From: an uncultured delta proteobacterium
GTDB taxonomy: Bacteria > Desulfobacterota > Desulfobacteria > Desulfobacterales > SG8-13
Length of the DNA stretch: 64,000 nt
Direction: 5' to 3'
Assembly: GCA_963848135.1 (NCBI GenBank)
Contig: CAWKCK010000003.1
Span: forward strand, 620,001 to 684,000
The notes beneath the pieces are model-generated. The model was not told the DNA's origin, searched no databases, and saw only the letters and a list, made by a program, of their open reading frames with translations. A program made the translations under genes and the position numbers. Shown piece after piece: positions 19,250 through 35,717 of this stretch; within the stretch, counting starts at the first letter, position 1, and each line of letters begins with the position of its first letter.

Positions 19250-19322
19250 GCGTTTCGAATATTAAATGGAAGGGGAACCGCTTTATTAATCAGGAATTCT
19301 ATCATATCCTTAGTTGGATACA

Positions 19323-19541
19323 GGTTGAGCGGTTGAACGTTCACGGTTCCCAGCTAAAGTGCCATAACTGGTTTCTAACAATCGTATTTCGGATCAATTG
19401 GTTTGAATTCTATGTTTCACCCAATGGGTGAAAGCGGTCAATCCTAACTATGGAGTGTAAAATTAAATATATCAAAACTTTATAACCTTTGGACCTTGAA
19501 CCCTGAATCCCGCCTGGACGGGAAACCGATCCGTTTAGGTT
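19323..19541 (+). repeat. ~200-bp dispersed repeat, copy C
   Basis: Aligns with copies A, B and D. Confidence 0.85.
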
Positions 19542-19558
19542 GGGCTCCATCAGAGCGA

Positions 19559-20203
19559 ATGAAAAAATTCTCGAGCAATACTCATTCAGAAAACCAGACC
19601 CGTTTCGGCCTTATCCGCCACGCCCAGACTGTTTGGAATAAGGAAAAAAGGATCCAGGGCCAGCTCGATTCCGTCTTGACGGGCCAGGGTAAAAAGCAGG
19701 CCGAAGCCTGGGCGGGTATTCTCAGCCACTATCGATGGGACCGCTGCCTTTGCAGCGATCTCGGTCGGGCGCAGTCAACCGCAGCTATCATCAACAGCAT
19801 GATAAAAGTTCCCCTTGTTTATGAGGCTGGGCTGCGGGAGCAGAACTGGGGACGCTGGTCAGGTTTAACTTTAGCACAGCTCGCACAGGAGAAATCCGAC
19901 CATCTGGCCGCGCAGACACGCAGGGGTTGGCGGTTTTGCCCCAGTGGTGGAGAAGACAGGAACCATGTCTGGGAAAGAGGCCGGCGCGCGCTCGAGTCAG
20001 CAGCGGCGAAATGGCCGGGTGAATCGATCCTCGTTGTCACCCATGAAGGTGTCATCAAGTGCCTGGTTTACCATTTGCTGCAGCGGCGCTTTCTCCCGAC
20101 GGAAGCGCGTCTCCTGCGACCGGCACATCTTCATTTGCTGCTTGCCAGTCCAGGCCGGATATCCATAGAAAAAATCAATGCATTGGCTTTGGGGAGTGGT
20201 TGA
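19559..20203 (+). CDS. Histidine phosphatase (phosphoglycerate mutase-like) family protein
   Basis: LIRHAQT.WN...IQG, SDL.RA..TA, LRE..WG.W.G, VTHEG. Start moved to ATG 19559 because the longer ORF begins inside a repeat. Confidence 0.9.
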   Translation: MKKFSSNTHSENQTRFGLIRHAQTVWNKEKRIQGQLDSVLTGQGKKQAEAWAGILSHYRWDRCLCSDLGRAQSTAAIINSMIKVPLVYEAGLREQNWGRWSGLTLAQLAQEKSDHLAAQTRRGWRFCPSGGEDRNHVWERGRRALESAAAKWPGESILVVTHEGVIKCLVYHLLQRRFLPTEARLLRPAHLHLLLASPGRISIEKINALALGSG

Positions 20204-20215
20204 TAAAAGGATACC

Positions 20216-21391
20216 ATGAAGATCATTTACTACTGTCAGCATATCTGGGGAGTGGGGCATTTCTTCAGAAGTCTTGAAATCTGCAAGGCTCTGGCGGCGC
20301 ATGAGATCATCATGGTCACCGGCGGCCCCGAGATCGATACGCCAGTACCGGCCAATGTCCGGGTCGTCCGTCTACCCGGCCTGATGACGGACCGCAATTA
20401 CAGTGGACTCTTTCCCACCGACAAGAGCCGGACCTTGGAAGCCGTCAAAGCGGAACGCCAGAAACTTCTTTTTCAACTGATCGAGCGAGAGGCCCCGGAG
20501 GTCTTTGTGGTCGAGCTCTATCCTTTCGGTCGCAAAGCCTTTGGGTTCGAACTTGACCCGGTATTGGAAGGTATACGAAGCGGACGACTCCACCGGAGTA
20601 GGGTGGCGTGCAGTCTCCGGGATATTCTGGTCGAGAAGAATGATCCTGTCGCGTATGAAAGAAGAGTCGTCGGCATTCTCAACCGTTGGTTCGACGTGTT
20701 ACTGGTTCACGCCGACCCGAAGTTGGTCAGGCTTGACTGCACCTTCTCGCGCCTTGCTGACATCGCCATACCCGTGGTTTACACGGGCTTCATCACGCCG
20801 AAGCCACCGCCAGGTATCCGCGGCCAAATCCGATCCGGTATTGGTGTCGACGAAGATGCGTTTCTTATCATCGCCAGTGCCGGGGGAGGGCAGGCGGGAA
20901 TCGTGCTCCTGGAACCGCTGGTGGAATGTTTCCCGGAGTTGAACGCCGATCGACCGGCTTTTTTGCATGTTTTTACAGGCCCTTACATGCCAGATGATGA
21001 GTTTGCACGGCTGCTTGCGCGGGCGGATCGTCACTTAAAAATCGAACGCTTTACCTCTGATTTTCTGTCTCTGCTGGCGACAGCCGATCTGTCGATCAGC
21101 ATGGGAGGATACAATACGAGTATGAATCTTCTGGCCACGAGAACTCCGGCCCTTGTCTGGCCTTATCCGGGCGACAGAGAACAGGGATTACGGGCAGACC
21201 GTTTGGCTCAGATTGGTGCGGTAACCGTTCTGAAAGAAAAAGACCTGCAACCGGAACGGCTGTTGGAAGTTATCCGTGGCCGGATCTTGAATCCGGCGGC
21301 GGCTTCCCATTCGATCGATCTTGAAGGTGCGATCACTACCGCCAGGCATATCGAGGTGGCAACCACAGCGGATTCCGGAACCGAATTCTGA
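20216..21391 (+). CDS. GT-B glycosyltransferase (COG4671 / GT28-like), paralogue of 14747-16033
   Basis: QH..G.GH, ELYPFGR, SLRDIL, SAGGG, SMGGYNT, EQ..RA. Confidence 0.88.
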   Translation: MKIIYYCQHIWGVGHFFRSLEICKALAAHEIIMVTGGPEIDTPVPANVRVVRLPGLMTDRNYSGLFPTDKSRTLEAVKAERQKLLFQLIEREAPEVFVVELYPFGRKAFGFELDPVLEGIRSGRLHRSRVACSLRDILVEKNDPVAYERRVVGILNRWFDVLLVHADPKLVRLDCTFSRLADIAIPVVYTGFITPKPPPGIRGQIRSGIGVDEDAFLIIASAGGGQAGIVLLEPLVECFPELNADRPAFLHVFTGPYMPDDEFARLLARADRHLKIERFTSDFLSLLATADLSISMGGYNTSMNLLATRTPALVWPYPGDREQGLRADRLAQIGAVTVLKEKDLQPERLLEVIRGRILNPAAASHSIDLEGAITTARHIEVATTADSGTEF

Positions 21392-21641: not shown

Positions 21642-22340
21642 ATGGCTGATAAACCTGATGAGTTGGTTTCCACATCCGTCACCGATCCCGTGAAACGGCT
21701 TGTCGTTCTGCCGCTCAAGAAAGCAATCGAGATCGCATTCAAGAGTATTCGGGTTCGATTCTTACGGTCGCTAATTACGACCTTGAGCCTGGTGCTGGCA
21801 GTGGCGTTCCTTTCATTTACCAATGTCGGCACGGACGTGGCAGACGGGTTACTGGCAACCGGCCACGTCGATTCCCGGCAGATCCTGATCAATGCCGGCT
21901 ATGACATCGGGCCGGAAGATACCAGCGTCGCGGCCTCGGCCAAACAGCGTTGGATCGTGATCCTCTCACTGGTGGTCTGTGTCGTGGGTATCGTCAATGC
22001 GCAGCTGATGGCTGTCACAGAGAGGTTCCGGGAAATTGGAACCATGAAATGCCTCGGGGCTCTGGATCGATTTATTCTGCGACTCTTTTTTCTGGAAGCC
22101 GGAATGCAGGGCCTGGCTGGCGGCGCTGCGGGCGCCGTGATAGGGGCCCTGTTCTCACTGCTCAATGCGGCCGTCAGCTTTGGTGCCACGGCACTGGCCA
22201 CCCTTTCTTGGCGGGCGGTTTTAGTTTCGATCCTGTCAGCCACCATCGTCGGATTTCTCCTGAGCCTTTTGGGGGTTGTCTATCCGGCAATCGTAGCGGC
22301 CAGGATGCAGCCGGTGGAGGCCATGCGCTCGGAACACTGA
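21642..22340 (+). CDS. Small FtsX-like ABC permease with a very short extracytoplasmic loop
   Basis: Four hydrophobic segments; V.ER.REIGTMKCLGA; YPA..AARM.PVEAMR. Confidence 0.88.
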   Translation: MADKPDELVSTSVTDPVKRLVVLPLKKAIEIAFKSIRVRFLRSLITTLSLVLAVAFLSFTNVGTDVADGLLATGHVDSRQILINAGYDIGPEDTSVAASAKQRWIVILSLVVCVVGIVNAQLMAVTERFREIGTMKCLGALDRFILRLFFLEAGMQGLAGGAAGAVIGALFSLLNAAVSFGATALATLSWRAVLVSILSATIVGFLLSLLGVVYPAIVAARMQPVEAMRSEH

Positions 22341-22395
22341 ATCGTGTTGCCGCTGCGGCAGAAACCCCGCCAACGGAGCCGGGTGAGGAAATTTG

Positions 22396-23133
22396 ATGAA
22401 AGATAAGCATAACATCGTCAGGGTTTCTAACGTTACCAAGTCTTTTCACTTGGGGAAGATCGACGTTCAGGCACTCAAAGGGGTTGACCTTGAAATTCAG
22501 TCCGGCCACTACATTTCCATCATGGGGCCCTCAGGATCCGGCAAAAGCACGCTCTTCAACATGATCGGCGGGCTGGACAAACCAAGTTCCGGCAAGGTTT
22601 TCATCGACGAAGTCGATATTGCACAACTCGACGCTTACGAACTCGCATGGTTACGCTGTCGTAAGATCGGCTACATCTTTCAAACGTTCAACCTGATTCA
22701 GGTCATGTCAGCCCTTGAGAACGTGACCCTACCCATGACATTTGCAGGGATGAACGGCGACGATGCCACCGAGAAGGGCTTCCGTCTGCTTGAGCTCGTC
22801 GGCCTGGCCGATCGATATCATCACAAACCCTCGGAACTTTCCGGCGGCCAGCAGCAACGCGTGGCTGTGGCCAGAGCGCTGGCCAACGATCCGGCGATCA
22901 TACTGGCTGACGAGCCCACCGGCAACCTCGACCTCAGCACGGGTGAAGAGATTATTGCTCTGTTGAAGAATTTGAGTCGTGAGAGGTCGGTGACAGTGAT
23001 TTCCGCCACCCATGACTTTAAAATGTTGAATGTTTCGGATCAGGTCGTTTGGATCCGTGACGGACGCGTCGATAAAATCGAAAACCGGGACGAACTGTCC
23101 ATCTCCCTTGGGAAAATCGGAGCCAAGGAGTAA
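22396..23133 (+). CDS. ABC ATPase, LolD/MacB type
   Basis: GPSGSGKST, IFQTFNL, LSGGQQQRVAVARAL, ADEPTGNLD, TH. Confidence 0.95.
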   Translation: MKDKHNIVRVSNVTKSFHLGKIDVQALKGVDLEIQSGHYISIMGPSGSGKSTLFNMIGGLDKPSSGKVFIDEVDIAQLDAYELAWLRCRKIGYIFQTFNLIQVMSALENVTLPMTFAGMNGDDATEKGFRLLELVGLADRYHHKPSELSGGQQQRVAVARALANDPAIILADEPTGNLDLSTGEEIIALLKNLSRERSVTVISATHDFKMLNVSDQVVWIRDGRVDKIENRDELSISLGKIGAKE

Positions 23134-23197
23134 TATCGACCCGTCTTATTCGTTCCAATATAAACATTCACCTCTGGTGGCGGCCCCAGAGAGATTC

Positions 23198-23305
23198 GTA
23201 AGCATTCACAGGGCACTGCATCTGCCTTGTTGTCAGGCGTTTGAAGTACAAAAGTACATCTGCGCGCCCGACGCCTTGTATCCGCGGCACCCTGTAAACG
23301 CTTAC
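23198..23305. repeat. REP/MITE-like hairpin element
   Basis: Termini GTAAGCATTCACAGGG / CCCTGTAAACGCTTAC; central GTAC-aaaa-GTAC. Confidence 0.7.
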
Positions 23306-23464
23306 AACTCTGTGGTCTGAAGAACATTGGACGTTGCAACCCTGTGAACAGATACAGAGATTCTACCAGTCCGGGTAGAATTAAAAATACGAATATTCTT
23401 TATCATCGGACCTTACGGAACATATCATCAACCCTATTACCAACAAGACCAGATACCATTTCAA

Positions 23465-26400
23465 ATGCCGGTTTTCTCTAAAAAGAACATTCAGAGTTTT
23501 TCGCCCCTTCGCCGGCGACAGCGGTCTAATTTCATTTACGTTCCGATAAAAAACGCAATATTGACAGCCGGATTGCTTTTGCTCTGGATACTCCAGTCGG
23601 CCTCACCCGCTTTTTCAGTTGACGCTGCAACATCCGCGGATCGCTTTTTGGCTGAAATCCACAAAATGGCCGCCTTGGAAGATCGCAGTACCGGTACCCC
23701 CGGATGCGCTGCTGCTGCCAAATTTATAAAGAGCCGTTTTGAGCAATTCGGCTTGGAAGCCGTTGGTACGCAACTTTTCAAGGTGCCGGTGATTCGGCAT
23801 CTAAGCAGCCGCATCTATTTACCAGACCGACAGGTCAGCCTCGCGGTTCAGCCGGTCATCGCCAATGCTGTCGCACCGCAGACGATCCCGACAGAGGGCC
23901 TTCAGGGACCGGTCATTTACGTCGGACCAGGTGAACTCCATCACTTTAACGGCAAGCCTGTAGAAGGCGCTATCGTTTTGATGGACATCGATTCCGGAAA
24001 GAATTGGCTGAACGCCGCTTCGTTGGGAGCCGTCGCCCTGATCTATCTCGATGGTGCCGCCACACCGAAGATGCTTTACGATGACAAACTGGAGCTGACG
24101 CCGCTTTCATTCCCCCGCTTCCGTATCGATCGAGAAGCGGCCCGTCGGATTTTCGGATCCTTTGAATCGACGCCGGGAGAATTGGTTTCCCAGTCCGCGG
24201 TTCTTTACTCAAAATCTGGCTGGGAGGATGTGACCGCAGAGAACGTGTTCGGGTTGATTCCGGGTTCAGATCCCAAGCTGAAGGAGCAACTCATCATCGT
24301 CGAGGCCTTTTATGATACCGGAGCCCTGGTACCGGGATTGGCACCCGGGGCGGATGAAGCCGTTGGGATCATTACCTTGCTGGATTTGGCCCGCACGCTG
24401 CAGACGTCACCGCCGGGCCGCTCGGTACTTCTCGTGGCCACTGCCGGTCATGCGCAGACCCTCGCCGGTATGCGCGAAATGATGTGGGGCATCCGGTCAC
24501 GCAGCAAAGATCTGCGCAAACTGCAAAAAAGCCTCAATAAAACCGTGAAACAGGCCGGTGGCATCCTGGAAATGCTTAACGAGATCCGCCAGAAGGGTGT
24601 CACGGCCTTCCTGGCAACAGAAGCTTCCGACCGGAATCAACAGGGTCAGAGACTGCTCGATGCCGACAGCGATTCGATCAAAACCGAGGTGGACGGCATC
24701 TCAAAACAGCTTATGCGATTGCGATTGGAGAGCGATGGCGAAGAAAACCAGGATCGCATCCGGAAGCTGGTTCAGGAGCGGCGTCTCCTTCGTCGCATCC
24801 TCTGGCGTACCGATCTCAATGACCTTTCCATAGAAGAAATAGCAGCCATCGAGCAGGTGACGCCGAATGCCATCGACGAATACCGACGGATAGAGAAAGA
24901 TGCCAAGCGACAGGAGCAGTTGATCCGCAGCACCAAGAGTTTCCGCGGCCTTGCCAAATCAATGGAGATCTCGGCCATTGTCTCCCTGCATCTTTCCAGT
25001 CACGGGGACGGATTCGGTGCCTTTAACTATGGTTGGCTCTACCCGTTGCGGCCGCGGGTCAACCGTACGGCCATTTACAGCACGCTGGACGACGTGTTGA
25101 AGAAAAGTGCTGCAACAATAAATGACAAAGGGTTGGGTCCGGTACTTTATCAGGATACCCTGCGACCCCGTCGCGTGCGTTCATGGCAAAGCTATTTTCT
25201 CGATCGGCCGCCGCTGGGCGGGGAAGTCAGTGCTCTGGCCGGCTTCTTGGGCGTTTCTATGGTCACGGTGAACGATGCCCGGCCGCTGTGGGGGACACCG
25301 GGTGATCAACCCGATACCATCGACCCCGAATTTGCCGCTCGCCAGAGTGCACAGATCGCGGCGATGATCAACGATATCTCACAGGCAGAGCGGTTGTATG
25401 AAGGCAGCCTGCCCAGGGACGGATTTACTACTGTCACGGCCCAGGCAAAATTTCTGCGGCACGGTGAACTATTTCCCGATCAACCGGCACCGGGAACAGT
25501 GGTCATGACCTTTCAGGGCCAGGGACGCTATTACAACATGGTGGATGCCCTGGGGAGGTTCACCATCAAGGGCGTGGCCACCAAAAAACTGGTTCAAGAC
25601 AAGCTGGTCATCGAAGCCTACCGATTCGATTCCGAAAACGGACAGATTGTGTGGGCCATCGATAAAAAGCAGACCGGTAAGGACGCTTATCGGGTCAAAG
25701 TGCAACGCAACAACATCGAAACCAACCTGGTGATGTTCGGGTGCAAGCAGAGCGTCGTATTTAACCTGCTCGAACCGCGCACCTTCCGTTACATGAACAA
25801 GGTCCAGTTGATCGATGCCAGGCGCGAAGCCCGCCCGAGCCGCTATAGCTTCAGCAGGTTCGACACCTGGTCCTCGGCCATGTCCTCGCTGATGCTCGAG
25901 CCCGGCACACCCTGGAAATTGACATTATCGGACACAGTGCTGCGCTGGAAACTCTTACTTCTCAATGCCGATGTCGACCACCCACAAGGCCGGGGTTATC
26001 TTGTCGACGATTGGCCCTTCGTTTATCGCACGGATTACAAGGTCGCCCGTGATATGTGGTACCTGCTCGTACCGCGCATTCAGGCGCTCGAATCGCACGG
26101 CATCTACAACCAGAGAATTTCCCGGCTCCAGCAGGAAGGGATAGAAGTGCTGGAGAAAGCCCGCAAGGCCCTTGATGAAAGGCAATACGATCGTTTTGTC
26201 AAACATGCATCGAGCTCCTGGGCGCTGGCCACTCGTGTTTATGGTGACATCGAGGACACACAAAAAGACGTCCTATTCGGTGTGTTGTTCTACATTGCCC
26301 TTTTTGTGCCTTTTGCCTTTTGCATGGAGCGGCTGCTTTTTTCTTATACAAACATCCACAAACGCATCATCGCCTTCTGCGGCATCCTGATTACCCTCAT

Positions 26401-28471
26401 CGCCATTATTTATAATGTACACCCCGCGTTTCAACTGGCTTACAGCCCGACGGTCGTCATTCTGGCTTTTTTCATCATGGGCCTTTCCGCCATTGTGACC
26501 CTGATCATTTACTTTCGTTTCGAAGAAGAAATGGCCAAACTCCAACAGCATGCCCGGCAGATGAAAGCCATACAGATGGGACGCTGGAAGGCCTTTGCGG
26601 CGGCATTTCTTTTAGGGGTCAGCAATCTCAGGCGTCGGCGGTTGCGAACGGCCCTGACCAGTGTCACCTTGATTATTCTGACCTTCACTGTCATGAGCTT
26701 TACTTCCGTTAAGTCGTTGCGCCACCACAGCCGGTTGCTCTACCAGGAACGCTCGCCTTATAACGGATATTTGTTCAAGAATGTCAACTGGACCGATTTG
26801 CCTACCGAGAGCTTGAGTTTTGTTGCCGATTATTTCGGAAACAATAGTATCACCGTACCGCGGGTATGGCTTGAAGACAAAGATCGGACCCGCACACTGA
26901 CAGTGCCGGTTCAGCGTAACGAACGGCGGTACACCGCGTACGGCGTGGTTGGATTGTCTGCCGCTGAAGTCCATGTGACCAGTATGGAGAGAATTCTTGT
27001 CGGCGGTCGCTGGTTCCGGGATTCGGAACAGCAGGCGGTTCTGCTGTCCGAGCGGATGGCTAAGGAACTGGACATCGATCCGGGGGTAAATCAGAAAGTC
27101 GATGTACTCATCTGGGGGCTTCCGTTTCGGGTCGTCGGTGTGTTTTCAAGCCGTCTGTTGATGGAAAACACTGACTTGGACGGAGAGCCGCTTTCAACGG
27201 TGACTTTCCCCAGCGAAATGTCCATGGAGATGACCGAAGTTGAAATGGAGGCCCTGGAGTCCGGAGAGGAAGTCCGTTCGTACCAGAGCCGCTACCAGCA
27301 CGTCGATGCCGACCGCATGCTGATCGTCCCCGATAAATTTTTAATGTCTGCCGGGGGAAAACTCAAGGGGATTGCCGTAAAACCCGCGGGTGGCCGGGTC
27401 GACCGAACGGACGCCGAACGTATCGTCGACCGGTTCGGCCTGACGCTCTTTGCCGGGCAAACGGATGGTACGTATCTTTACCAGGCCAGTGACACCATGA
27501 GTTACAGCGGTGTCCCCAATGTTGTCATACCGCTGGTGATTTCTGTTTTCATCGTACTCAACACGATGATCGGTAGCGTCTACGAAAGAAAAAAAGAAAT
27601 TGGTATATACACTGCCGTGGGACTGGCGCCGTCCCACGTGTCATTTCTTTTCATTGCCGAGGCGCTGGCGTTCGCGGTACTCAGCGTTGTTCTCGGGTAC
27701 TTGTTGGCCCAGGTGACGGCCGGAGTGCTCGCCGGCTCCGCTCTGTGGTCCGGAATAACCGTCAACTATTCTTCCATTGCGGGCGTGGCGGCCATGATCC
27801 TGGTTATTCTGGTCGTACTGGTATCCGTAATTTATCCATCCAGGGTTGCGGCCAACATCGCCATACCGGACGTCAACCGCTCCTGGCGGCTTCCGGCGGC
27901 TGTCGGGCACCGCTTGGAGGTGACACTCCCTTTTCTGATGAAGCCTCGTGAGCACCTGAGTATCGGTGGTTTCCTTCTTGATCACTTCGAAGGGCACCGA
28001 GATGTTTCCCACGGTTTGTTTTCCGCCGGAAAGATAAATTTCTCACTGGCACAGTGCATGGCTCCAGAAGACAATCCCAATCGCAAGGCCTTCGATAATA
28101 CGTCGGAGGGCGCCGAAAGCAGCGAAGTTTTTTTGCAGATGACGACCGATATTTGGTTGGCACCGTTTGATTTCGGTATTATGCAACAGGTTGTGGTCGC
28201 ATTCTGCCGATCTGCGGATGACCCTGGATTCCTTGAAATCAGAATCCTCCTGGAACGGCTTTCCGGAGAAGCCAACGCCTGGTATAGAATCAACAAGGCT
28301 TTCCTGCATGAACTGCGAAAAACTTTGTTGGTATGGCGATCGCTCGATACGGTTTCCAAAGATCACTACGCAGAACTTATCGCCGTAGAAGGACGGAAGC
28401 GCGGCATCGATGTCAGGCAGTATTTGGAAGCGGCCCCTGAAAACAGCGCATCGATATCGGACGGGACTTGA
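23465..28471 (+). CDS. 1668-aa fusion: PA/M28 peptidase-like ectodomain plus MacB/FtsX-like permease and a C-terminal soluble domain
   Basis: Signal-like segment; R.TGT.G...AA, PA-like insert, ENV.G...G, APGADE; TM cluster; NLRRRRLRT.LT; VYERKKEIGIY.AVGL; YPS..A. Confidence 0.8.
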   Translation: MPVFSKKNIQSFSPLRRRQRSNFIYVPIKNAILTAGLLLLWILQSASPAFSVDAATSADRFLAEIHKMAALEDRSTGTPGCAAAAKFIKSRFEQFGLEAVGTQLFKVPVIRHLSSRIYLPDRQVSLAVQPVIANAVAPQTIPTEGLQGPVIYVGPGELHHFNGKPVEGAIVLMDIDSGKNWLNAASLGAVALIYLDGAATPKMLYDDKLELTPLSFPRFRIDREAARRIFGSFESTPGELVSQSAVLYSKSGWEDVTAENVFGLIPGSDPKLKEQLIIVEAFYDTGALVPGLAPGADEAVGIITLLDLARTLQTSPPGRSVLLVATAGHAQTLAGMREMMWGIRSRSKDLRKLQKSLNKTVKQAGGILEMLNEIRQKGVTAFLATEASDRNQQGQRLLDADSDSIKTEVDGISKQLMRLRLESDGEENQDRIRKLVQERRLLRRILWRTDLNDLSIEEIAAIEQVTPNAIDEYRRIEKDAKRQEQLIRSTKSFRGLAKSMEISAIVSLHLSSHGDGFGAFNYGWLYPLRPRVNRTAIYSTLDDVLKKSAATINDKGLGPVLYQDTLRPRRVRSWQSYFLDRPPLGGEVSALAGFLGVSMVTVNDARPLWGTPGDQPDTIDPEFAARQSAQIAAMINDISQAERLYEGSLPRDGFTTVTAQAKFLRHGELFPDQPAPGTVVMTFQGQGRYYNMVDALGRFTIKGVATKKLVQDKLVIEAYRFDSENGQIVWAIDKKQTGKDAYRVKVQRNNIETNLVMFGCKQSVVFNLLEPRTFRYMNKVQLIDARREARPSRYSFSRFDTWSSAMSSLMLEPGTPWKLTLSDTVLRWKLLLLNADVDHPQGRGYLVDDWPFVYRTDYKVARDMWYLLVPRIQALESHGIYNQRISRLQQEGIEVLEKARKALDERQYDRFVKHASSSWALATRVYGDIEDTQKDVLFGVLFYIALFVPFAFCMERLLFSYTNIHKRIIAFCGILITLIAIIYNVHPAFQLAYSPTVVILAFFIMGLSAIVTLIIYFRFEEEMAKLQQHARQMKAIQMGRWKAFAAAFLLGVSNLRRRRLRTALTSVTLIILTFTVMSFTSVKSLRHHSRLLYQERSPYNGYLFKNVNWTDLPTESLSFVADYFGNNSITVPRVWLEDKDRTRTLTVPVQRNERRYTAYGVVGLSAAEVHVTSMERILVGGRWFRDSEQQAVLLSERMAKELDIDPGVNQKVDVLIWGLPFRVVGVFSSRLLMENTDLDGEPLSTVTFPSEMSMEMTEVEMEALESGEEVRSYQSRYQHVDADRMLIVPDKFLMSAGGKLKGIAVKPAGGRVDRTDAERIVDRFGLTLFAGQTDGTYLYQASDTMSYSGVPNVVIPLVISVFIVLNTMIGSVYERKKEIGIYTAVGLAPSHVSFLFIAEALAFAVLSVVLGYLLAQVTAGVLAGSALWSGITVNYSSIAGVAAMILVILVVLVSVIYPSRVAANIAIPDVNRSWRLPAAVGHRLEVTLPFLMKPREHLSIGGFLLDHFEGHRDVSHGLFSAGKINFSLAQCMAPEDNPNRKAFDNTSEGAESSEVFLQMTTDIWLAPFDFGIMQQVVVAFCRSADDPGFLEIRILLERLSGEANAWYRINKAFLHELRKTLLVWRSLDTVSKDHYAELIAVEGRKRGIDVRQYLEAAPENSASISDGT

Positions 28472-30540
28472 GCTGTATGGAAAAAATTGATTCAACCGAC
28501 AACAACGATACATCCTGCGTGATTCGCGAATCCGGTGTCCCATCCACCACCGCGGGCGTTAACGGCGGCGGGCCGATACGTTTGCGCGCCGTGACGATCG
28601 GGTTTGCTCTGGCGATGTTGATTTGCGCCATTACACCGTTCAACAATGTGTATCGCTCGGCAACGCCACTGGGTGGCGGGCATTTCCCTCTGGCGCCATT
28701 CTACATTCTTTTCTGGCTGATGGTGGCCACTGCCGGTCTCAGGATTGTCTTTTCACGGTGGACCTGGCTTACGGGTCGAGAGTTGCTTCTTATCTGGATC
28801 CTGATGGTCCTGGCCTCAGGCATTGCCTACACCGGTCTGGTCCGTACCTTCTTTATCAATCTGACGGCACCGCAGTATTTTTCGAGCCTTGGAAGCCGCT
28901 GGGCAGAGGAACTTCTGCCCATTCTTCCCAAGGGGCTCTATCCGCAGAGCCCGGAAGCGGTTTCCTCTCTATACGACGGGCTGGCCGGCGGGCGCAACTT
29001 GAGCTGGTGGGAAGTCTTTCAGCAGATTCCATGGCACGCCTGGCTTCCGCCACTTGCATTTTGGGGCAGTTTTATCTTCATTTGCTACTTTGTGATGCTT
29101 TGCATGATTAACATCCTCAGCCGGCAGGCGATCGAGAACGAGCGGATGAATTTTCCCCTTCTGCGGGTTCCGCAGCTCATGCAGGAAGCTTACGACGGCA
29201 ATGCCTTGGGCCGCTTTTTAACCGATCGGTTTCTGCTTGCAGGTCTCGCTATTCCATTTGTCCTGCACTTGATCAACGGGCTTAATTTCTACATTCCGTC
29301 TGTGCCTCAGGTCCCTACTCTTATTTTGGCCGGGTCATACTTTCCCAAGTACGGCCTTTTTTCCGGATTTTACAAACTCAAGATTTTCATCTATCCGGCA
29401 TTTATCGGATTTGCATTTTTGACCTCCAAGCAGATCTCTTTATCGTTCTGGTTTTTTTTCATCTTCGGTGGGTTGCTGTTCGGTTTACTTGGAATTATGG
29501 GTTACGAGATCCCTGAAGCCGCCCTGGGCGTCACCTTCGGACCCACCCTCTCCCGGCCGGAAGAAACCCAGACCATCGGCGCTTATGGCGTCTTTTTTCT
29601 CTTTCTTCTTTGGCTGGCGCGTTTTCATCTCTGGGGGACCGTGAGGGATGCCGTGCGGTTTCGTGCCTCCGATCCGTCTGATGTGGAGTGGATCTCTTTC
29701 CGGTTTTCCTTCTGGGGCTTCGTTTGCGGTTCGACACTGTTGATCGGTTTGTGCGTTATTTACGGGCTGCCGCTCCTGCCGGCTTTTTTGACGGTGTGTG
29801 CCTTCTTCATGGTGATGCTTGTCGCCACCAGGGTGATCTGCCAGGGTGGCCTGGCCTATTTCACGCTCACTGATGCGCCTCTCGACGGGCTCTTATTTAT
29901 ATTCGGTCCCCGGTTTTTCGGCACTATTGGGCTTCTTCTCAGCGCAGCGGTCCAAAAAGTTCTATTTCTCGATCTACGGGAATCCCTCATGCCGTCGTTG
30001 CTCCATGCCGGCCGGGTGACATTCCGCATGGATCCAAAAAAAATGATTCTCGGCGCCATTGTCATCACTCTTTTGTCCGCCGTTGTGGTTTCGTTTGTCT
30101 CCATGTTGACCCTTTGTTATAAATTCGGCGCCCGCGAACTTGATCTGGACTGGGCCGTGCGGTCCACGGTGTCGGTTTATGAAAACGTACACAATCTTGT
30201 CGAGTCGCCGATGCGCAGTGGAAAGTGGGTATTGGTCTTTTCTTTGGTCGGGGCCGTAATAATGACGGTGCTGGTTGTCTGCTACCATCGTTTCTACTGG
30301 TGGCCCATCCACCCGATTGGGTATCTGACGACATACAGTTCAGCCATGCGGATTCTCTGGTTCAGTTTTTTTATCGGCTGGTTGTGTAACGTCCTCTGCA
30401 TGCGCTATGGCGGCGTGCACCTGTATAAAAAGCTACGGTTTTTCTTCGTCGGACTGATAATCGGTGACTTTCTCATGGCCGGCAGCTGGGCGATTGTGGG
30501 TTTGTTCTCGGACGCAAGCTATTTGGTTTTGCCGTCCTGA
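28468..30540 (+). CDS. Polytopic membrane protein, DUF6785/DUF6784-like (distant OPT resemblance)
   Basis: Many TM segments; W..W..PL..W, ERMNFPL, WWPIHPIGY, RYGG..LY, F.GLIIGD. Confidence 0.7.
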   Translation: MSCMEKIDSTDNNDTSCVIRESGVPSTTAGVNGGGPIRLRAVTIGFALAMLICAITPFNNVYRSATPLGGGHFPLAPFYILFWLMVATAGLRIVFSRWTWLTGRELLLIWILMVLASGIAYTGLVRTFFINLTAPQYFSSLGSRWAEELLPILPKGLYPQSPEAVSSLYDGLAGGRNLSWWEVFQQIPWHAWLPPLAFWGSFIFICYFVMLCMINILSRQAIENERMNFPLLRVPQLMQEAYDGNALGRFLTDRFLLAGLAIPFVLHLINGLNFYIPSVPQVPTLILAGSYFPKYGLFSGFYKLKIFIYPAFIGFAFLTSKQISLSFWFFFIFGGLLFGLLGIMGYEIPEAALGVTFGPTLSRPEETQTIGAYGVFFLFLLWLARFHLWGTVRDAVRFRASDPSDVEWISFRFSFWGFVCGSTLLIGLCVIYGLPLLPAFLTVCAFFMVMLVATRVICQGGLAYFTLTDAPLDGLLFIFGPRFFGTIGLLLSAAVQKVLFLDLRESLMPSLLHAGRVTFRMDPKKMILGAIVITLLSAVVVSFVSMLTLCYKFGARELDLDWAVRSTVSVYENVHNLVESPMRSGKWVLVFSLVGAVIMTVLVVCYHRFYWWPIHPIGYLTTYSSAMRILWFSFFIGWLCNVLCMRYGGVHLYKKLRFFFVGLIIGDFLMAGSWAIVGLFSDASYLVLPS

Positions 30541-30618
30541 TGTCGGAATTACCTTTTCGCCGGTCTCGCCGGGAACAATAGACCCAATTGGATAAAAGGT
30601 CCGGGTTGATATGAATTT

Positions 30619-30730
30619 ACCCGCAACCCGTAACTCGCAACCCGTAACCCGTAACTCGCAACCCGTAACTCGCAACCCGTAACCCGTAACTCGCAACCCG
30701 TAACCCGTAACCCGCAACCCGTAACCCGCA
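30619..30730. repeat. Tandem heptamer array, 16 units of ACCCGTA/ACTCGCA/ACCCGCA
   Basis: Counted directly; ends 8 nt before the ATG at 30739. Confidence 0.95.
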
Positions 30731-30738
30731 ACGCAAAT

Positions 30739-32700
30739 ATGTACGACGACAAAGAACTCAAAGAATACCGGGATCTACTCCAACCTCCAGACCACTTTGA
30801 AGAAGGGTTTGACTGGAAGACCGTCATCGGGGCCATATTCATCGGATTTCTGATGATGCCCGGCAGTATGTATTTGCAATTGGTGATCGGTACCGGCATC
30901 GGTCCGGCCGCCCGTTGGGTAACCATCATCCTGTTCGCCGAAGTGGCCAAGCGCTCCTACACCGAATTGAAGCAACAGGAAATATTTCTACTGTATTATA
31001 TGGCCGGGGCCGCCATGGCGACGCCTTTTCAAGGGTTGCTCTGGAACCAGTACCTGGTTCAGTCCGATGCGGCCCGGATGCTTGGATTGACCGAATTTAT
31101 TCCGACCTGGATAGCGCCATCCGCCGATTCGGATTCTCTCGTACAGCGGAGTTTTTTCCACAGGGACTGGCTCATACCGATTTTGCTGCTTGTCGGCACC
31201 CAGTTGATTCAACGGATCGACCGTTTCGGACTTGGGTACACATTGTACCGTCTCACCTCCGACGTTGAAAAACTTCCCTTTCCCATGGCACCGGTGGGGG
31301 CACTGGGAACGATGGCCCTGGCCGAGTCCACCGAGGACAAAAAGAAGAGCTGGAAGTGGCGCGTGTTTTCCATCGGCGGGATGATCGGTCTGGTATTCGG
31401 AGCCATCTACGTGCTGCTGCCCACGGTCTCGGGCCTGGTTCTGATGGAACCCATCCGATTGCTACCAATACCGTGGGTTGATTTGACCCGCTATACCGAA
31501 AGGGTGATGCCGGCGGTGGCGACAGGCATCCAGTTCGACCTGACCCTGCTTTTCGTCGGAATGGTACTGCCTTTCTGGGCGGTGATCGGTGGTCTGATCG
31601 GTGTGCTCATCACCTTCGTGGCCAATCCGATCCTCTTCCGCCACGGTATCCTCTATCGCTGGCACGAGGGTATGGGGACGGTCGACACGGTTTTTGCCAA
31701 TAATTTCGATTTTTACATGAGTTTCGGCATCGGCCTTGGCCTGGCAATAGCCGCCATCGGCATCTGGGCGGTTCTGAGATCTTTTGGTAAAAACGCACCC
31801 GGGCAGCGCGGGAGCCTCAGGGATTTGCTGACGTCTCATCCCAGTCGGGGCGACATCAATATCTGGATTTCTATCGGAATCTATGTGTTCTCCACCCTGT
31901 CGTACGTGGGGCTCTGCGTCTGGCTCGTTCCCAATTTTCCCTGGTTGTTTTTTCTCGGATACGGTTTTGTTTACACGCCGTTGGTCTCTTATATCACCGC
32001 CCGGATGGAAGGGATAGCCGGTCAGTTTGTCAGCCTGCCGATGGTGCGCGAGGCCAGCTTTATCGCCGGTGCCCGGTTTTTCGGCTATCAGGGCATCGAG
32101 ATCTGGTATGCGCCGATTCCGATTCACAATTACGGTGAAGCAACGGTATCCTTTCGCGAGATCGAGCTGACCGGTACCAGTTTGCGCGGCATCATCAAAG
32201 CTGAGATCATCGTGTTTCCGGTGGTCATGATTGCCAGCCTCCTTTTTTCACAGTTCATTTGGCGTCTGGCGCCGATTCCTTCCAGCAACTATCCTTACGC
32301 CCAAGAACTCTGGCACCTTCAGGCCCTTAATTCCCTGCTGATGCAGACCTCGACTCTGGAAGGCAACTCCCTGTTTTTTCAGGCACTCAGAGCCAGCTAT
32401 GTACTCACGGGCATGTTATTCGGTCTGGTGACCTACGCCGTGCTGTCGCTGCTGGGGCTGCCGGTTCTGCTGATTTACGGCGTGGTTCGTGGTCTGGGTC
32501 AGTCCACCCCCCACGGATTTATCCTGGAAGTGATCGGTGCCCTTTTGGGGCGCTTTTTCTTCATTAAACGCTACGGCGCCATGTGGCGGCAATACGCACC
32601 GGTGCTTCTGGCCGGGTTTTCCTGCGGCATGGGCCTGACCGGTATGTTTGCGATGGGCTTTGCTCTGATTCTTAAATCCCTCGGTAGGCTCTTGTACTGA
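30739..32700 (+). CDS. OPT/YSL-superfamily-like peptide transporter
   Basis: Many TM segments; L..QE, EKLPFP and C-terminal LAGF..G motifs reminiscent of OPT. Confidence 0.7.
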   Translation: MYDDKELKEYRDLLQPPDHFEEGFDWKTVIGAIFIGFLMMPGSMYLQLVIGTGIGPAARWVTIILFAEVAKRSYTELKQQEIFLLYYMAGAAMATPFQGLLWNQYLVQSDAARMLGLTEFIPTWIAPSADSDSLVQRSFFHRDWLIPILLLVGTQLIQRIDRFGLGYTLYRLTSDVEKLPFPMAPVGALGTMALAESTEDKKKSWKWRVFSIGGMIGLVFGAIYVLLPTVSGLVLMEPIRLLPIPWVDLTRYTERVMPAVATGIQFDLTLLFVGMVLPFWAVIGGLIGVLITFVANPILFRHGILYRWHEGMGTVDTVFANNFDFYMSFGIGLGLAIAAIGIWAVLRSFGKNAPGQRGSLRDLLTSHPSRGDINIWISIGIYVFSTLSYVGLCVWLVPNFPWLFFLGYGFVYTPLVSYITARMEGIAGQFVSLPMVREASFIAGARFFGYQGIEIWYAPIPIHNYGEATVSFREIELTGTSLRGIIKAEIIVFPVVMIASLLFSQFIWRLAPIPSSNYPYAQELWHLQALNSLLMQTSTLEGNSLFFQALRASYVLTGMLFGLVTYAVLSLLGLPVLLIYGVVRGLGQSTPHGFILEVIGALLGRFFFIKRYGAMWRQYAPVLLAGFSCGMGLTGMFAMGFALILKSLGRLLY

Positions 32701-32724
32701 TACCGGTATCTCAGAAGACAGACC

Positions 32725-33639
32725 GTGGTCAATCAACCCAAAAAGTCCGCCTCGCCGCAATGGCGTGAAGTCGCCTGGAACGGGGTGCGTTTAGAGGTTC
32801 CGGCGAATTGGGAAATCGGAGAAATCGGCCGGCAGCACCTGTTTTTGGAAACCATCGACGGACCAAAGTTGGAGATAAAATGGGGGCCGGTGAAAGGCAG
32901 ATTTTCACCCCGCGCACAGCTCAAACGGTTGGCTGCTTCCCAAGGGCGAAAACTGCGCAAGGATCTGCACGAGGCGGCATTACCGACCGCCTGGGCGCAG
33001 GTTCTCAGCCGCTTCGAAAGCGTCGGGTTTCTTTGGCGCAGCGGTACTGGCACTATCGGCGGGCGCGGTATCGTGCTCTATTGTCCTGCCTGTCGGCAAG
33101 CGACTCTGCTGCAATTCTACCGGGCCCCGTTTGATCGACCCATTCCTTACGCCACCCGGCTGCTGGCATCCTTTGTGGACCACACCAATCGACCGTTAAC
33201 GACATGGGCGGTCTTCGATGTTCACGTGAAGATACCAACAGAATATGTATTAAAGGCATTTCGTTTCGAAACTGGATTCTACGAGCTTGCCTTCTCAAGC
33301 CGGGCATCGAAGCTCACTCTGCAGCGCTGGAGTCCTGCTGACGTGCTCCTCGGGGATGACGGATTATCGGGATTCGAAAGAAAATACCTGGCCTATTCCA
33401 CGAAGCGTCCCGTCACATTCAAAACACGATCAACGGATATTGTCGAAGTGGAGGACCGTCTACCCAAAGCTATTTTGCAACGTTTAATACGTCATTTGCG
33501 GCGTCAGCCGCTATACATCCGCGAACGATTGTGGCACGAAGCCGACAAGAACCGTATCCTCGGGGTACGGCTGGAAGGAAGGGAGCCCATCGACTCGCAA
33601 CATCTGCATTCGATTTGTACAAGTTATGGGACCATTTAA
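32725..33639 (+). CDS. Hypothetical soluble protein, possibly an internally duplicated PsbP/DcrB-like fold
   Basis: In operon (overlaps the next gene); WNGVRLEVPANWEI and FDVHVKIPTEYVL are similar; one CPAC; no signal peptide. Confidence 0.65.
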   Translation: MVNQPKKSASPQWREVAWNGVRLEVPANWEIGEIGRQHLFLETIDGPKLEIKWGPVKGRFSPRAQLKRLAASQGRKLRKDLHEAALPTAWAQVLSRFESVGFLWRSGTGTIGGRGIVLYCPACRQATLLQFYRAPFDRPIPYATRLLASFVDHTNRPLTTWAVFDVHVKIPTEYVLKAFRFETGFYELAFSSRASKLTLQRWSPADVLLGDDGLSGFERKYLAYSTKRPVTFKTRSTDIVEVEDRLPKAILQRLIRHLRRQPLYIRERLWHEADKNRILGVRLEGREPIDSQHLHSICTSYGTI

Positions 33640-34009
33640 ACGCAAAAAACGGTTAGAGGGGCCGGATCGAAGCGAGGCCCTCGACTGCACTCCCGTAAAA
33701 AATAACCAGATCGAGGAATCCCGCTTGGAGAGCGGGGAGCTGCTTCTGAGTTATCCCATGATCACACGACCATGGTTGGCCGGTCTTTTCAGACGGTTGG
33801 GGGGAAACAGCGAACGGACCGTAGTGAAGAAGCTCCAGTTGGATATTCTCGGAACTGAAGTCTGGGAACTTATTGACGGTGATACCCGGGTCCGTGATGT
33901 CATTCGGCGATTCGCCGGGACACACCGACTGCCTCACAGAGAGGCAGAGGTTGCGGTTACCCGGTTTCTGTGGGATCTGGGGAAGCGGGGTCTCATTGGG
34001 TTGCGTTGA
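33626..34009 (+). CDS. Stand-alone PqqD-family / RiPP recognition element-like protein
   Basis: LD..G..VWELIDG...V.DVI..F.....L...EAE..V..FL..L.KRGLI winged-helix pattern. Confidence 0.82.
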   Translation: MGPFKRKKRLEGPDRSEALDCTPVKNNQIEESRLESGELLLSYPMITRPWLAGLFRRLGGNSERTVVKKLQLDILGTEVWELIDGDTRVRDVIRRFAGTHRLPHREAEVAVTRFLWDLGKRGLIGLR

Positions 34010-34220: not shown

Positions 34221-34553
34221 CTAAACTTTCGATAGTGCGTTTTCCACTGTCGGCACGATTGTCAGAAAGGAATCGAATCCGGCGATTTCAAAGACCTCCT
34301 TGACGTAATCCTGCATCGCGCAAAGGACGATGTTTCCCTCTGTTCTTTTCAGATCTTTGGTCGTTTTCAGAATTATGCGTAGCCCGGCACTGGAAATATA
34401 ATCCAAATTCTCAAAGTCAATGACCACATTTCGTGCACCGCTTTCCATCGCTTCCATTAACCTTTTTTCCAAAGCAGGGGAGGTGTTCGAATCAAGGCGC
34501 CCGTTCAATTTGAAAATATTGATTTCATCTTTTTTCGTTTCGAGTATTTCCAT
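34221..34553 (-). CDS. STAS-domain anti-sigma-factor antagonist (RsbV/SpoIIAA-like)
   Basis: GRLDS, YISSAGLR (phospho-Ser motif), VFEIAGF. Confidence 0.93.
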   Translation of the reverse strand: MEILETKKDEINIFKLNGRLDSNTSPALEKRLMEAMESGARNVVIDFENLDYISSAGLRIILKTTKDLKRTEGNIVLCAMQDYVKEVFEIAGFDSFLTIVPTVENALSKV

Positions 34554-34644
34554 CTGACGTCCCTCTTTGTATCACATAGTTTGGTGCCATTTATTTTCGT
34601 ATAACCGGTAATTTCAGAGTTCTGAACGCTGCGATTAAAGCGCT

Positions 34645-35070
34645 TCAGCACTTGGAAACATTTTTAACCAACGTGATGATGTTTTTCTTGCCACAGCGTT
34701 GGTATGTGATTTCATCCATTATTTTTTTTACCAAATGTAAGCCGAGCCCACCAATCTTGCAATCCTCAATTTTTGTTTCCGGAGTCGACATTTGCCGACT
34801 CGCCGGGTCGAAGGGAATACCGCTGTCTTCTAATTTCACACTGATTTTACCGTTGTCATGAGAAAGTGCCACCAAAATCGATTGCCTCCCATTATCCGGA
34901 AATCCATAGCTTACGATATTGGTGAATAACTCGTCCAGTGCCAAATTAATCTGAAAAATACACTTTTTAGACAATCCTATACCTTCTCCGAAGGCATTGA
35001 GTTTGCGACCCAGTTTGTCGAGTTCGGAAATATTGTTTTTAAGTTTGAATGAAAGATTTTTCCTTGCCAT
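34645..35070 (-). CDS. Anti-sigma factor / Ser kinase (RsbW-like HATPase)
   Basis: LDELFTNIVSYG, D.G.PFDP, GGLGLHLV...MD. Confidence 0.92.
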   Translation of the reverse strand: MARKNLSFKLKNNISELDKLGRKLNAFGEGIGLSKKCIFQINLALDELFTNIVSYGFPDNGRQSILVALSHDNGKISVKLEDSGIPFDPASRQMSTPETKIEDCKIGGLGLHLVKKIMDEITYQRCGKKNIITLVKNVSKC

Positions 35071-35189
35071 GACGATGTCGTCTCGTCCGCTTTTGTGTTG
35101 TGGACACTCGGATGACCGGCTCTGGGACTGTGCGGGTCAATCGTTGATGACAATACGAAATCGATTGATTTCTATCACGTTTGCCGCAG

Positions 35190-35717
35190 TCAAACAAGAC
35201 TGACGCCGATTTCCCTGTAGCAGTCGATGCATTCCGCCTTTTGGCGGGCGACGAAGCGCTTTTCCCAGTTATAAATGTTGTCGACAATGACTTTGATCAT
35301 TTTCGGCATTACATCCGGGAATTGTGCCAGAGCCTTCGAGAATTTTTCACCGGTAATGGTCAGGCACGCGACGTCTGTGCGGGCTTTTAGTGAAAAGAGG
35401 TGGCGCAAGCTTCCCAACAGAGCCAATCGCCCAATGAATTCGCCGTCGCCATAATCCCGGATCTCCTGCTCGTCACCGTTGTTTGTGAGCAGGAGGCCCG
35501 CACTTCCGGATATAATATAATACGCTTGTTCGTCTTCGTCGCCTTTTTGAAATATATACTCGCCGGTTTTGTAAAATTCTCTGTCGCACAGGTAGGCAAA
35601 CACCTTTGTTGCCTCAAGGGGCAACCCGGAGAAAAAATCGACCTGGCGAAGGAAGCGTAAATTTTCTTGATATTCACTGTCCGTTCCGTCGCTATCTTTT
35701 TCCATATTCGAGTTCAT
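35190..35717 (-). CDS. Stand-alone cyclic-nucleotide-binding domain protein
   Basis: L....FF.GL, GE.IF..GD....AYYIISG, GEFIG.LALL; start overlaps the ABC gene stop. Confidence 0.85.
   Translation of the reverse strand: MNSNMEKDSDGTDSEYQENLRFLRQVDFFSGLPLEATKVFAYLCDREFYKTGEYIFQKGDEDEQAYYIISGSAGLLLTNNGDEQEIRDYGDGEFIGRLALLGSLRHLFSLKARTDVACLTITGEKFSKALAQFPDVMPKMIKVIVDNIYNWEKRFVARQKAECIDCYREIGVSLV

Follow-up and report, generated by a model that had tools for sequence, protein, structure and literature searches.

A conserved gene cluster of Desulfobacterales that sets FtsX-type ABC components and a peptidase-like giant beside two OPT-fold proteins: a candidate composite transporter

Type VII ATP-binding cassette (ABC) systems, which include MacB, LolCDE, FtsEX, and YtrEF, occupy an unusual place among ABC proteins, in that LolCDE, FtsEX, and MacB hydrolyze ATP in the cytoplasm and perform mechanical work outside the membrane, without carrying their substrate through it. 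The OPT/YSL family (TC 2.A.67), to which the barley protein YS1 belongs, consists of secondary carriers for peptides or metal chelates, and in other secondary carriers, those of the TRAP and TTT systems, transport is served by an extracytoplasmic receptor. Here, we describe a cluster of seven genes (g1 to g7) in which parts resembling the first two of these systems stand side by side, together with a giant protein bearing a peptidase-like head. The cluster lies at positions 21642-34009 of a stretch of 64,000 nucleotides (hereafter the window) that corresponds to positions 620,001 to 684,000 of contig CAWKCK010000003.1 (assembly GCA_963848135.1), from an uncultured delta proteobacterium of the sulfate-reducer type (order Desulfobacterales).

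Each part of this cluster is of a known kind, and it is their fixed combination that is undescribed. An earlier note on this DNA, made by a model from the sequence alone, had stated that no described pathway combines these parts, and our literature searches for OPT proteins with FtsX and an ABC transporter, or with MacB and mechanotransmission, likewise returned nothing relevant. We tentatively favor, at somewhat short of an even chance, a reading in which g1 to g5 constitute one conserved inner-membrane module, where an FtsX engine, driven by ATP and equipped with a pseudo-peptidase receptor, serves a pair of OPT-type carriers, probably for the uptake of a peptide-like ligand, and in which g6 and g7 are an accessory cytoplasmic pair.

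All seven open reading frames are confirmed on the forward strand, and the coordinates and parts list of the earlier note hold. The cluster begins with g1 (21642-22340, 232 amino acids), a small FtsX-type permease (Pfam FtsX, E = 1.4e-15), and g2 (22393-23133, 246 amino acids), an ABC ATPase of the LolD/MacB/FtsE type (ABC_tran, 6e-33). These are followed by the giant g3 (23465-28471, 1668 amino acids), with Pfam matches to FtsX (4.3e-12), MacB_PCD (5.2e-7), and Peptidase_M28 (1.3e-5), and by two large membrane proteins, the polytopic g4 (28468-30540, 690 amino acids; DUF6785, 3.7e-160, and DUF6784, 1.7e-36) and the OPT-fold protein g5 (30739-32700, 653 amino acids), which has no Pfam match. 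The last two genes encode g6 (32725-33639, 304 amino acids), a soluble protein of an unnamed family without Pfam or NCBIfam match, and g7 (33626-34009, 127 amino acids), a PqqD-like protein of the RRE type (Pfam PqqD, 1.6e-6). Of the two overlapping junctions originally reported, that between g6 and g7 (33626/33639) agrees with the aligned starts of 31 homologs, whereas that between g3 and g4 (28468/28471) is not certain, as it depends on a TTG start codon of g4, and residue 4 of the g4 reading frame is also a methionine. Base composition is even across the cluster, with no island signal.

The genes recur together, far more often than by chance, in the order, in a sample of the phylum, and on metagenome contigs, clearly at odds with the possibility, raised at the outset, that they do not co-occur in other genomes. 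In a set of species-representative genomes of the order, anchored on g4 and drawn from the best 80 of 454 relatives (554 pattern matches), we counted only loci with enough flank. By this measure, g4 is accompanied by g3 in 58 of 58 loci, by g5 in 58 of 59, by g2 in 48 of 50, by g1 in 45 of 48, and by g6 and g7 in 35 of 43 each, and g1 and g2 lie upstream of g3 in 45 of 48. The commonest arrangement, seen in 18 loci, has an additional gene, x2, between g5 and g6, and the arrangement of the window is found in nine. The most conserved gene of the set is g5, with 78-95% identity across the order. Close homologs bear Desulfobacterales names, in line with the host and not with Desulfovibrio, which had been suggested as a source of homologs.

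To cover a wider range, 151 evenly drawn genomes of the phylum were searched with each part. g5-type carriers are present in 9 of the 151, and the same nine genomes hold DUF6785 and the full-length g3 ectodomain (E <= 3.8e-173); the other 29 genomes with matches to the ectodomain show partial, M28-like matches only (E >= 1.8e-21). Five of these nine core-bearing genomes have g6, and full-length g7 (E <= 1.1e-34) is found only in the five with g6, while thirteen other genomes have the PqqD part only or weak matches (E of 1.3e-11 or weaker). Some of the layouts are informative. Genome G153 has g1-g3, with g4-g5 beginning some 14 kb past the point at which g3 starts, and in G119, g5 is on a different contig; therefore, g3, g4, and g5 share genomes even when they are not adjacent. 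In G068, the order is g7 g1 g2 g3 g4 g5 g6. In G081, glycosyltransferase genes precede g1-g5 and neither g6 nor g7 was found in the genome, and in G024, g1-g5 and three upstream genes are on one contig, with x2-g6-g7 and genes for a STAS protein, a kinase, a cyclic-nucleotide (cNMP)-binding protein, and an ABCB-type exporter on another. Given that g6 and g7 are missing from four of the nine core-bearing genomes and separate in G024, we take g1-g5 as the core and g6/g7 as an accessory pair, a division that departs from the initial view of all seven genes as one unit. A second, partial copy of the module also occurs in some genomes, as in CP070652.1, the source of both locus L032 and locus L035, the latter showing only g4, g5, and a portion of g3, and G106 has two DUF6785 matches.

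Beyond the phylum, we scanned metagenome contigs using a distant g5 homolog as the lead (best 80 of 541 relatives; 599 pattern matches) and classified the open reading frames with iterated profiles. The g5 homologs on these contigs are 35-50% identical to that of the window. Of the 55 loci with at least 1.5 kb of upstream sequence, 31 have a g3-type giant within the 600 bp before g5. In the 19 loci that extend for 8 kb or more on either side, g3 is present 13 times and g4 eight times. A g6-g7-g1-g2 block travels together in L112, L114, L120, L124, L152, L154, and L176, and L124, L152, and L154 contain members of all seven families in one orientation, in the orders g4 g3 g5 g6 g7 g1 g2 and g6 g7 g1 g2 g4 g3 g5. 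Across phyla, g3, g4, and g5 remain close together although their order varies. Identities in these shuffled loci range from 25 to 47%, reaching down to 25-31% for g3, g4, and g6. These data bear directly on the simplest rival explanation, namely that two unrelated peptide carriers happen to lie next to an ABC system of the FtsX type, with no function in common. Consistent with such an explanation, some g5 homologs stand alone, gaps of 332 bp (g2-g3) and 199 bp (g4-g5, the latter holding a repeat array) interrupt the cluster, and a scan of the cluster for promoters and terminators was uninformative, with counts not above those in shuffled sequence. However, the neighborhood is kept under shuffled gene order at 25-47% identity, and the co-occurrence of g3, g4, and g5 in the same 9 of 151 genomes, non-adjacent cases included, makes mere adjacency very unlikely.

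The engine of the putative module would be formed by g1, g2, and part of g3. We find in it the features of a type VII ABC system, including FtsX four-helix domains in g1 and g3, a large periplasmic domain of the MacB type in g3, and a LolD/MacB/FtsE-type ATPase in g2. The best NCBIfam matches of g2 are to LolD (2.6e-67), the nucleotide-binding domain of MacB (1.6e-63), and FtsE (4.7e-60), none of which reaches its equivalog cut-off, and what we take to be the Walker A, signature, Walker B, and H-loop motifs can be read in its translation. The presence of two different FtsX proteins with one ATPase has a precedent in LolC, LolE, and LolD. In contrast to type VII ABC systems, g1 is almost devoid of a periplasmic domain: hydropathy indicates four hydrophobic segments with a loop of only about 45 amino acids between the first two, and no MacB-type domain. 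A further difference is that g3 adds to its FtsX body an ectodomain of about 890 amino acids, three transmembrane segments, and a cytoplasmic C-domain. Also, the constant company of two OPT-fold proteins sets the cluster apart from the type VII members described in the literature that we searched. A tripartite efflux pump of the MacAB-TolC kind was considered and rejected for lack of an adjacent partner: no membrane-fusion (MacA/HlyD) or outer-membrane (TolC-type) protein is encoded among the 14 genes scanned (18065-38208), no genome-wide search having been made.

The giant g3 is predicted to consist, in order, of an N-terminal anchor, the ectodomain, three transmembrane segments, the first FtsX transmembrane segment, a periplasmic domain of about 270 amino acids, FtsX segments 2 to 4, and a cytoplasmic tail of about 200 amino acids. 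Hydropathy places its hydrophobic segments at residues 24-42, 936-954, 968-986, 997-1015, 1064-1082, 1353-1371, about 1387-1418, and 1438-1456, and the Pfam matches lie at 260-339 (Peptidase_M28, weak), 1150-1230 (MacB_PCD), and 1355-1465 (FtsX). On the DNA, the first part of the ectodomain (23642-25405, forward strand; residues 60-647) has a PA plus M28-like fold, and the second (25406-26464; residues 648-1000) comprises a domain rich in beta structure and a helical stalk that runs into the membrane, as judged from the secondary structure of an AlphaFold2 model. The FtsX module (26654-27832; residues 1064-1456) contains the first transmembrane segment, the MacB_PCD domain, and segments 2 to 4, and is followed by the conserved C-domain (27866-28468). 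The MacB_PCD match scores 30.6 bits against a cut-off of 27 and falls in the roughly 270 amino acids between segments 1064-1082 and 1353-1371, and the FtsX module matches MacB in the Protein Data Bank (PDB; 5gko) at 7.4e-7. The homologs of g3 on metagenome contigs match over positions of about 45-1640 of the profile hidden Markov model (HMM).

Several searches agree on the nature of the g3 head, which had been described as M28-like from the start. The AlphaFold2 model of residues 60-1000 has a mean predicted local distance difference test (pLDDT) score of 91.7, and its residues 1-588 adopt a PA-M28 fold that is split by a helical hairpin of about 150 residues (model residues 288-438). Foldseek ranks 2ek8 first (5.5e-18), followed by the transferrin receptor and GCPII; a VIA search, which effectively covered model residues 1-588 only, returned the Aeromonas aminopeptidase 1rtq (Z 24.6, root-mean-square deviation 2.5, 252 aligned residues) and the transferrin receptor (Z 24.4); and the family profile matches 2ek8 in the PDB at 1.7e-21, as well as the transferrin receptor, nicalin, and nicastrin. 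M28 peptidases use a two-zinc site together with a catalytic glutamate (His, Asp, Glu-Glu, Asp, His). At the positions that we take to be catalytic, alignment of g3 with 2ek8 shows that the ligand histidine of the HxD motif is replaced by Phe, the Glu-Glu pair by His-Ala, and the histidine of HTP by Gly, with the family consensus reading f, H, and a at the first three of these positions; the acidic pair after PGA is retained. The head thus looks like a non-catalytic M28 domain, and the loss of the canonical catalytic residues favors the idea of a large extracytoplasmic receptor, already part of the first proposal, over that of an enzyme. In the transferrin receptor, nicastrin, and nicalin, the same fold is found with the same loss of canonical residues and in the same extracytoplasmic place on a membrane complex. 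Unlike these proteins, g3 is bacterial, is fused to FtsX, and has the helical hairpin.

This hairpin brings to mind a different possibility, in which the machine would act as a regulated envelope enzyme with a salvage function: an FtsEX-EnvC/PcsB-like switch would control the activity of the g3 ectodomain, or that of a partner bound to its hairpin, and the OPT-like carriers would take up the fragments. EnvC combines a coiled coil with a degenerate LytM domain, and the long hairpin inside a degenerate metallopeptidase-like domain is reminiscent of that arrangement. A related model in the PADLOC collection, which carries a beta-galactosidase-like part in the place of the M28 domain, also suggests that hydrolase-like heads could be exchanged. 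This possibility differs from the receptor reading mainly in the role assigned to the head, regulator of an enzyme as opposed to receptor, and we consider it quite unlikely, given that the canonical M28 catalytic residues are absent and that the neighborhood contains no conserved hydrolase gene.

The PADLOC relationship extends to the body of g3. Residues 872-1502, which run from the stalk through the three transmembrane segments and the FtsX module into the first part of the C-domain, match the model PDLC01991, "CARF_m8--CARF_LolE_TM", at 7.2e-55. The body of g3 thus falls in the family listed under that model, from which g3 differs by its M28-like head. The sister model with the beta-galactosidase-like head, PDLC01990, which matches g3 at 1.7e-19, appears to set that head on a g3-type body of stalk, transmembrane segments, FtsX module, and tail, an observation that suggests exchangeable outer heads on one g3-type chassis. 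The "CARF_m8" model names appear to come from a census of CARF proteins published in 2020. It is therefore necessary to consider whether the module might be a defense or stress effector under the control of a nucleotide signal, with a second messenger acting through a cytoplasmic sensor domain of g3 to activate the membrane machine. Besides the match of g3 itself, the C-domains of 16 of 26 g3 homologs match PDLC01991 (best E 7.4e-11), and the cluster has conserved neighbors in the genes for a cNMP-binding protein and a STAS/RsbW pair. However, the C-domain of the window's own g3 has no match to this model, and its profile finds neither a Pfam family nor a solved structure in the PDB. Moreover, the matches of the homologs cover positions of about 530-690 of the 810 in the model and thus stop about 120 positions short of its end, so that the CARF part itself may be absent. 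The stable gene order and the 78-95% identity of g5 across the order are also unlike a defense island. Taken together, we regard control by a nucleotide signal as highly improbable. No cyclic-oligonucleotide synthase of the type III CRISPR or CBASS kind is present among the 14 neighboring genes, a scan that did not extend to the whole genome.

The assignment of g4 and g5 to the OPT superfamily is invisible to Pfam, as neither protein matches the OPT family (PF03169) even at E values up to 10, and it was established by other means, in agreement with the earlier note's description of two OPT-like transporters. The AlphaFold2 model of g5 (pLDDT 90.2, predicted template modeling score 0.91) matches barley YS1 over its whole length in Foldseek (7wst, E 7.6e-12; 7wsr, E 6.1e-11; probability 1.00; TM-scores 0.64-0.71). 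YS1 is the only match below E = 1e-3, the runner-up having an E of 3e-3 and a TM-score of 0.11, and the sequence identity between g5 and YS1 is only 15%. In addition, 18 of 44 full-length g5 homologs do match Pfam OPT, the best at 1.3e-17. For g4, which scores 534.2 bits for DUF6785 (cut-off 25) and 124.8 bits for DUF6784 (cut-off 26.4), the link runs through g5. The two sequences appear unrelated by BLASTP (E 0.34) or by comparison of shallow profiles (probability 19%); when distant members are included in both profiles, hhalign relates them with a probability of 99.1% (E 9.7e-19, 572 columns), and a search of the Atlas also pointed to their kinship. We therefore conclude that g4 and g5 are divergent paralogs of the OPT/YSL fold, the fold of g4 being placed through its profile link to g5. 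Relatives of g5 are numerous, amounting to 1015 cluster representatives at E <= 1e-3 in a library clustered at 50% identity. The named members of related g5 clusters belong to Lentisphaerae and Poribacteria and are all labeled hypothetical. Some g5 homologs of 820-1080 amino acids (P0122, P0126, P0127, P0130, P0143, P0144, and P0145) have a domain inserted after about residue 542, consisting of Reg_prop or WD40 beta-propellers, a PDZ domain, or an FGE-sulfatase-like domain.

What distinguishes g4 and g5 from known OPT/YSL proteins is that they form a fixed pair of paralogs tied to an ABC engine, and that g4 is filed as DUF6785/DUF6784, families that no paper found in our literature search mentions. 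YS1 is a homodimer with an elevator-like model of transport (PMC9691689), which makes a heterodimer of the g4 and g5 paralogs plausible and, by analogy, a reasonable inference. As for function, a 2011 survey states that all characterized OPTs are cation symport uptake systems and that prokaryotic OPTs are widespread, with none biochemically characterized at that date (PMC3061005).

The accessory proteins g6 and g7 both lack hydrophobic segments by hydropathy and are predicted to be cytoplasmic. In the g6 alignment, C120, C123, D152, and H153 are nearly invariant and a C-terminal cysteine is conserved in the alignment blocks, a pattern that may represent a metal site. g6 has no match in the PDB, and its neighbors in the Atlas are all hypothetical proteins, none of which bears a Pfam domain; no longer or fused forms of g6 were found either, which is weak evidence. 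The PqqD match of g7 (28.8 bits against a gathering cut-off of 23.4) is confined to its C-terminal half, which resembles PqqD and the RRE of lasso-peptide B1 proteins, and the N-terminal half is conserved and peculiar to g7. Scores for NCBIfam models are below their cut-offs, at 23.9 against 80 for the lasso-peptide model and 17.6 against 100 for the GeoRSP chaperone. In contrast to known RREs, g7 is always paired with g6, and in other phyla g1-g2 follow directly after g7. A biosynthetic cluster for a ribosomally synthesized and post-translationally modified peptide, in which g7 would be the leader-binding component, was also considered and set aside: no precursor gene was found in the six intergenic gaps, and no maturation enzyme in the window.

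On the basis of these likenesses, it is tempting to hypothesize how the module could work. Two copies of g2 would power a heteromeric FtsX pair made of g1 and the FtsX module of g3, in the manner of LolCDE, FtsEX, and MacB. The pseudo-peptidase ectodomain of g3 would be the receptor of a peptide-like ligand, or a lid for it, comparable to the inactive M28-like domains of the transferrin receptor, nicastrin, and nicalin, and ATP-driven motion would load or release this ligand at the g4/g5 heterodimer, which would carry it across the membrane. Transport inward is more likely, because the OPTs that have been characterized are all uptake symporters. In lineages that have them, g7, which is PqqD-like, and g6, with its conserved cysteines and histidine, would act in the cytoplasm, either binding the cargo or signaling that it is there. 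TRAP and TTT systems provide a conceptual analog only, as they have no sequence relation to the module, and here the receptor would be anchored in the membrane and moved by ATP through FtsX. In its fullest form, this proposal amounts to a new class of composite transporter, spread over several phyla, in which the g1/g2/g3 engine uses a receptor tethered to the membrane to load the g4/g5 heterodimer, ATP primes or gates the secondary carrier, and a cytoplasmic sensor domain of g3 feeds back on the engine together with g6 and the PqqD-like protein. We view this full version as possible but doubtful; that the module represents a new class of composite transporter has, in itself, a real chance of being correct.

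Several observations weigh against the uptake module that we favor. In the phylum sample, g6 and g7 were not found in four of the nine core-bearing genomes, and these nine belong to six families and are not independent of one another. On the well-flanked metagenome contigs, each of g1, g2, g6, and g7 appears in only 3 of the 19 loci, and a g5 homolog occurs without g3 in 6 of the 19. When twelve g3-less loci were picked and nine of them scanned, all nine had unrelated neighbors; therefore, g5-type carriers can stand alone or have their partners elsewhere. Within the M28-like domain of g3, His270 and Asp225 are nearly invariant in the family alignment, as is the acidic pair, and these residues could form a new active site, so that the head may not be inactive. 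Finally, the PqqD-type proteins, a B12-binding radical S-adenosylmethionine (SAM) enzyme in some relatives, and an adjacent ABCB-type exporter point to a product that is made in the cytoplasm and exported.

This last point is the basis for an alternative in which the cluster would serve export or envelope biogenesis. A cytoplasmic peptide or glycoconjugate, made with the aid of the PqqD-like protein and, in some lineages, of radical SAM enzymes and glycosyltransferases, would leave through the OPT-like pair or the ABCB-type exporter, and the FtsX engine with its ectodomain would then extract it, pass it on, or fix it in the envelope, in the way that LolCDE and MacB handle their cargo. The nature of g7 itself fits this proposal. 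So do some of the genes that join the cluster in relatives: Pfam identifies a B12-binding radical SAM gene of roughly 500 amino acids between g5 and x2-g6-g7 in L049 (9914-11428) and L069 (14940-16442), and reading frames of 498-500 amino acids occupy the same position in L050, L051, and L070. It is also well established that type VII ABC systems extract or expel their substrates and do not import them. However, none of the six intergenic gaps of the cluster contains a conserved, precursor-like small open reading frame, and the genome of the window has no clear ortholog of the radical SAM enzyme, but only paralogs, the best of which is 29% identical. The absence of g6 and g7 from four of the nine core-bearing genomes and of any membrane-fusion or outer-membrane partner among the 14 genes scanned also speaks against export, as does the statement, in the survey cited above, that every characterized OPT imports (PMC3061005). 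On balance, we consider an export or biogenesis role unlikely.

The genes on either side of the cluster are relevant to this question. Upstream, on the forward strand, lies a trio (18065-21391) that encodes, according to Pfam and NCBIfam, a glycosyltransferase of family 4 (GT4), a histidine-phosphatase family protein, and a GT28/MurG-like glycosyltransferase. The best NCBIfam matches of the GT4 protein are of the MshA and BshA types and fall far below the cut-off. A 250-bp gap separates the trio from g1, to which it is possibly linked: 31 of 45 loci have a GT28-like gene upstream, and in G024 and G081, too, g1 comes after glycosyltransferase genes, a recurrence that counts in favor of the export proposal. 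Judging by their families, enzymes of this kind could make a small glycoside. Downstream of g7, a convergent set on the reverse strand (34221-38208; Pfam) comprises a STAS protein, an RsbW-like kinase (HATPase_c_2), the cNMP-binding protein, and a fused exporter of the ABCB type. The exporter has 838 amino acids, with its ATPase domain matched by Pfam in two stretches (one at 358-457) and an SMC_N match over 599-809, and the cNMP gene overlaps its start (35692-35738). This set is also possibly linked to the module, as a STAS gene follows g7 in 32 of 42 loci and the set is kept beside g7 in most relatives; in L089, an ABCB homolog lies inside the cluster, between g5 and g6, and the conservation of this exporter is a further point for export.

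If the uptake module that we favor is correct, it would have implications for both of the protein classes that it joins. The module, which is conserved across phyla, gives prokaryotic OPT carriers a defined set of partners, and it opens the question of whether a secondary carrier can be served by an ABC engine whose work is confined to the outside of the membrane. It would also provide a bacterial case of an inactive M28 domain acting as a receptor on a membrane complex. Should the parts assemble, they would make a clear structural target and could reveal what at least four protein families, now labeled hypothetical, do.

Two further elements of these loci deserve mention. The first is x2, a protein of 205-220 amino acids without Pfam match; 29 of 50 related loci carry its gene between g5 and g6 (for example, L049, 11439-12092). 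It is absent from the cluster of the window; a copy with 50% identity to an x2 of 217 amino acids is encoded elsewhere in the same genome (G000:C17:1393385-1393993), where the neighboring genes are unrelated and specify a redoxin, a DsbA-like protein, and a PAS kinase. The second is the repeat array between g4 and g5, a tandem array of 114 bp (30619-30732) made of the heptamers ACCCGTA, ACTCGCA, and ACCCGCA, which ends 7 bases before the start codon of g5. Shorter arrays of the same heptamers end 5-11 bases before the g5 start in L022, L078, L088, and L093, and the number of units varies by genome from 4 to 16. In the host genome, the heptamer pattern matches 76 times and a reversed control not at all, and about nine such arrays are spread over five contigs; the heptamers therefore represent a dispersed family of short tandem repeats that is not specific to this operon.

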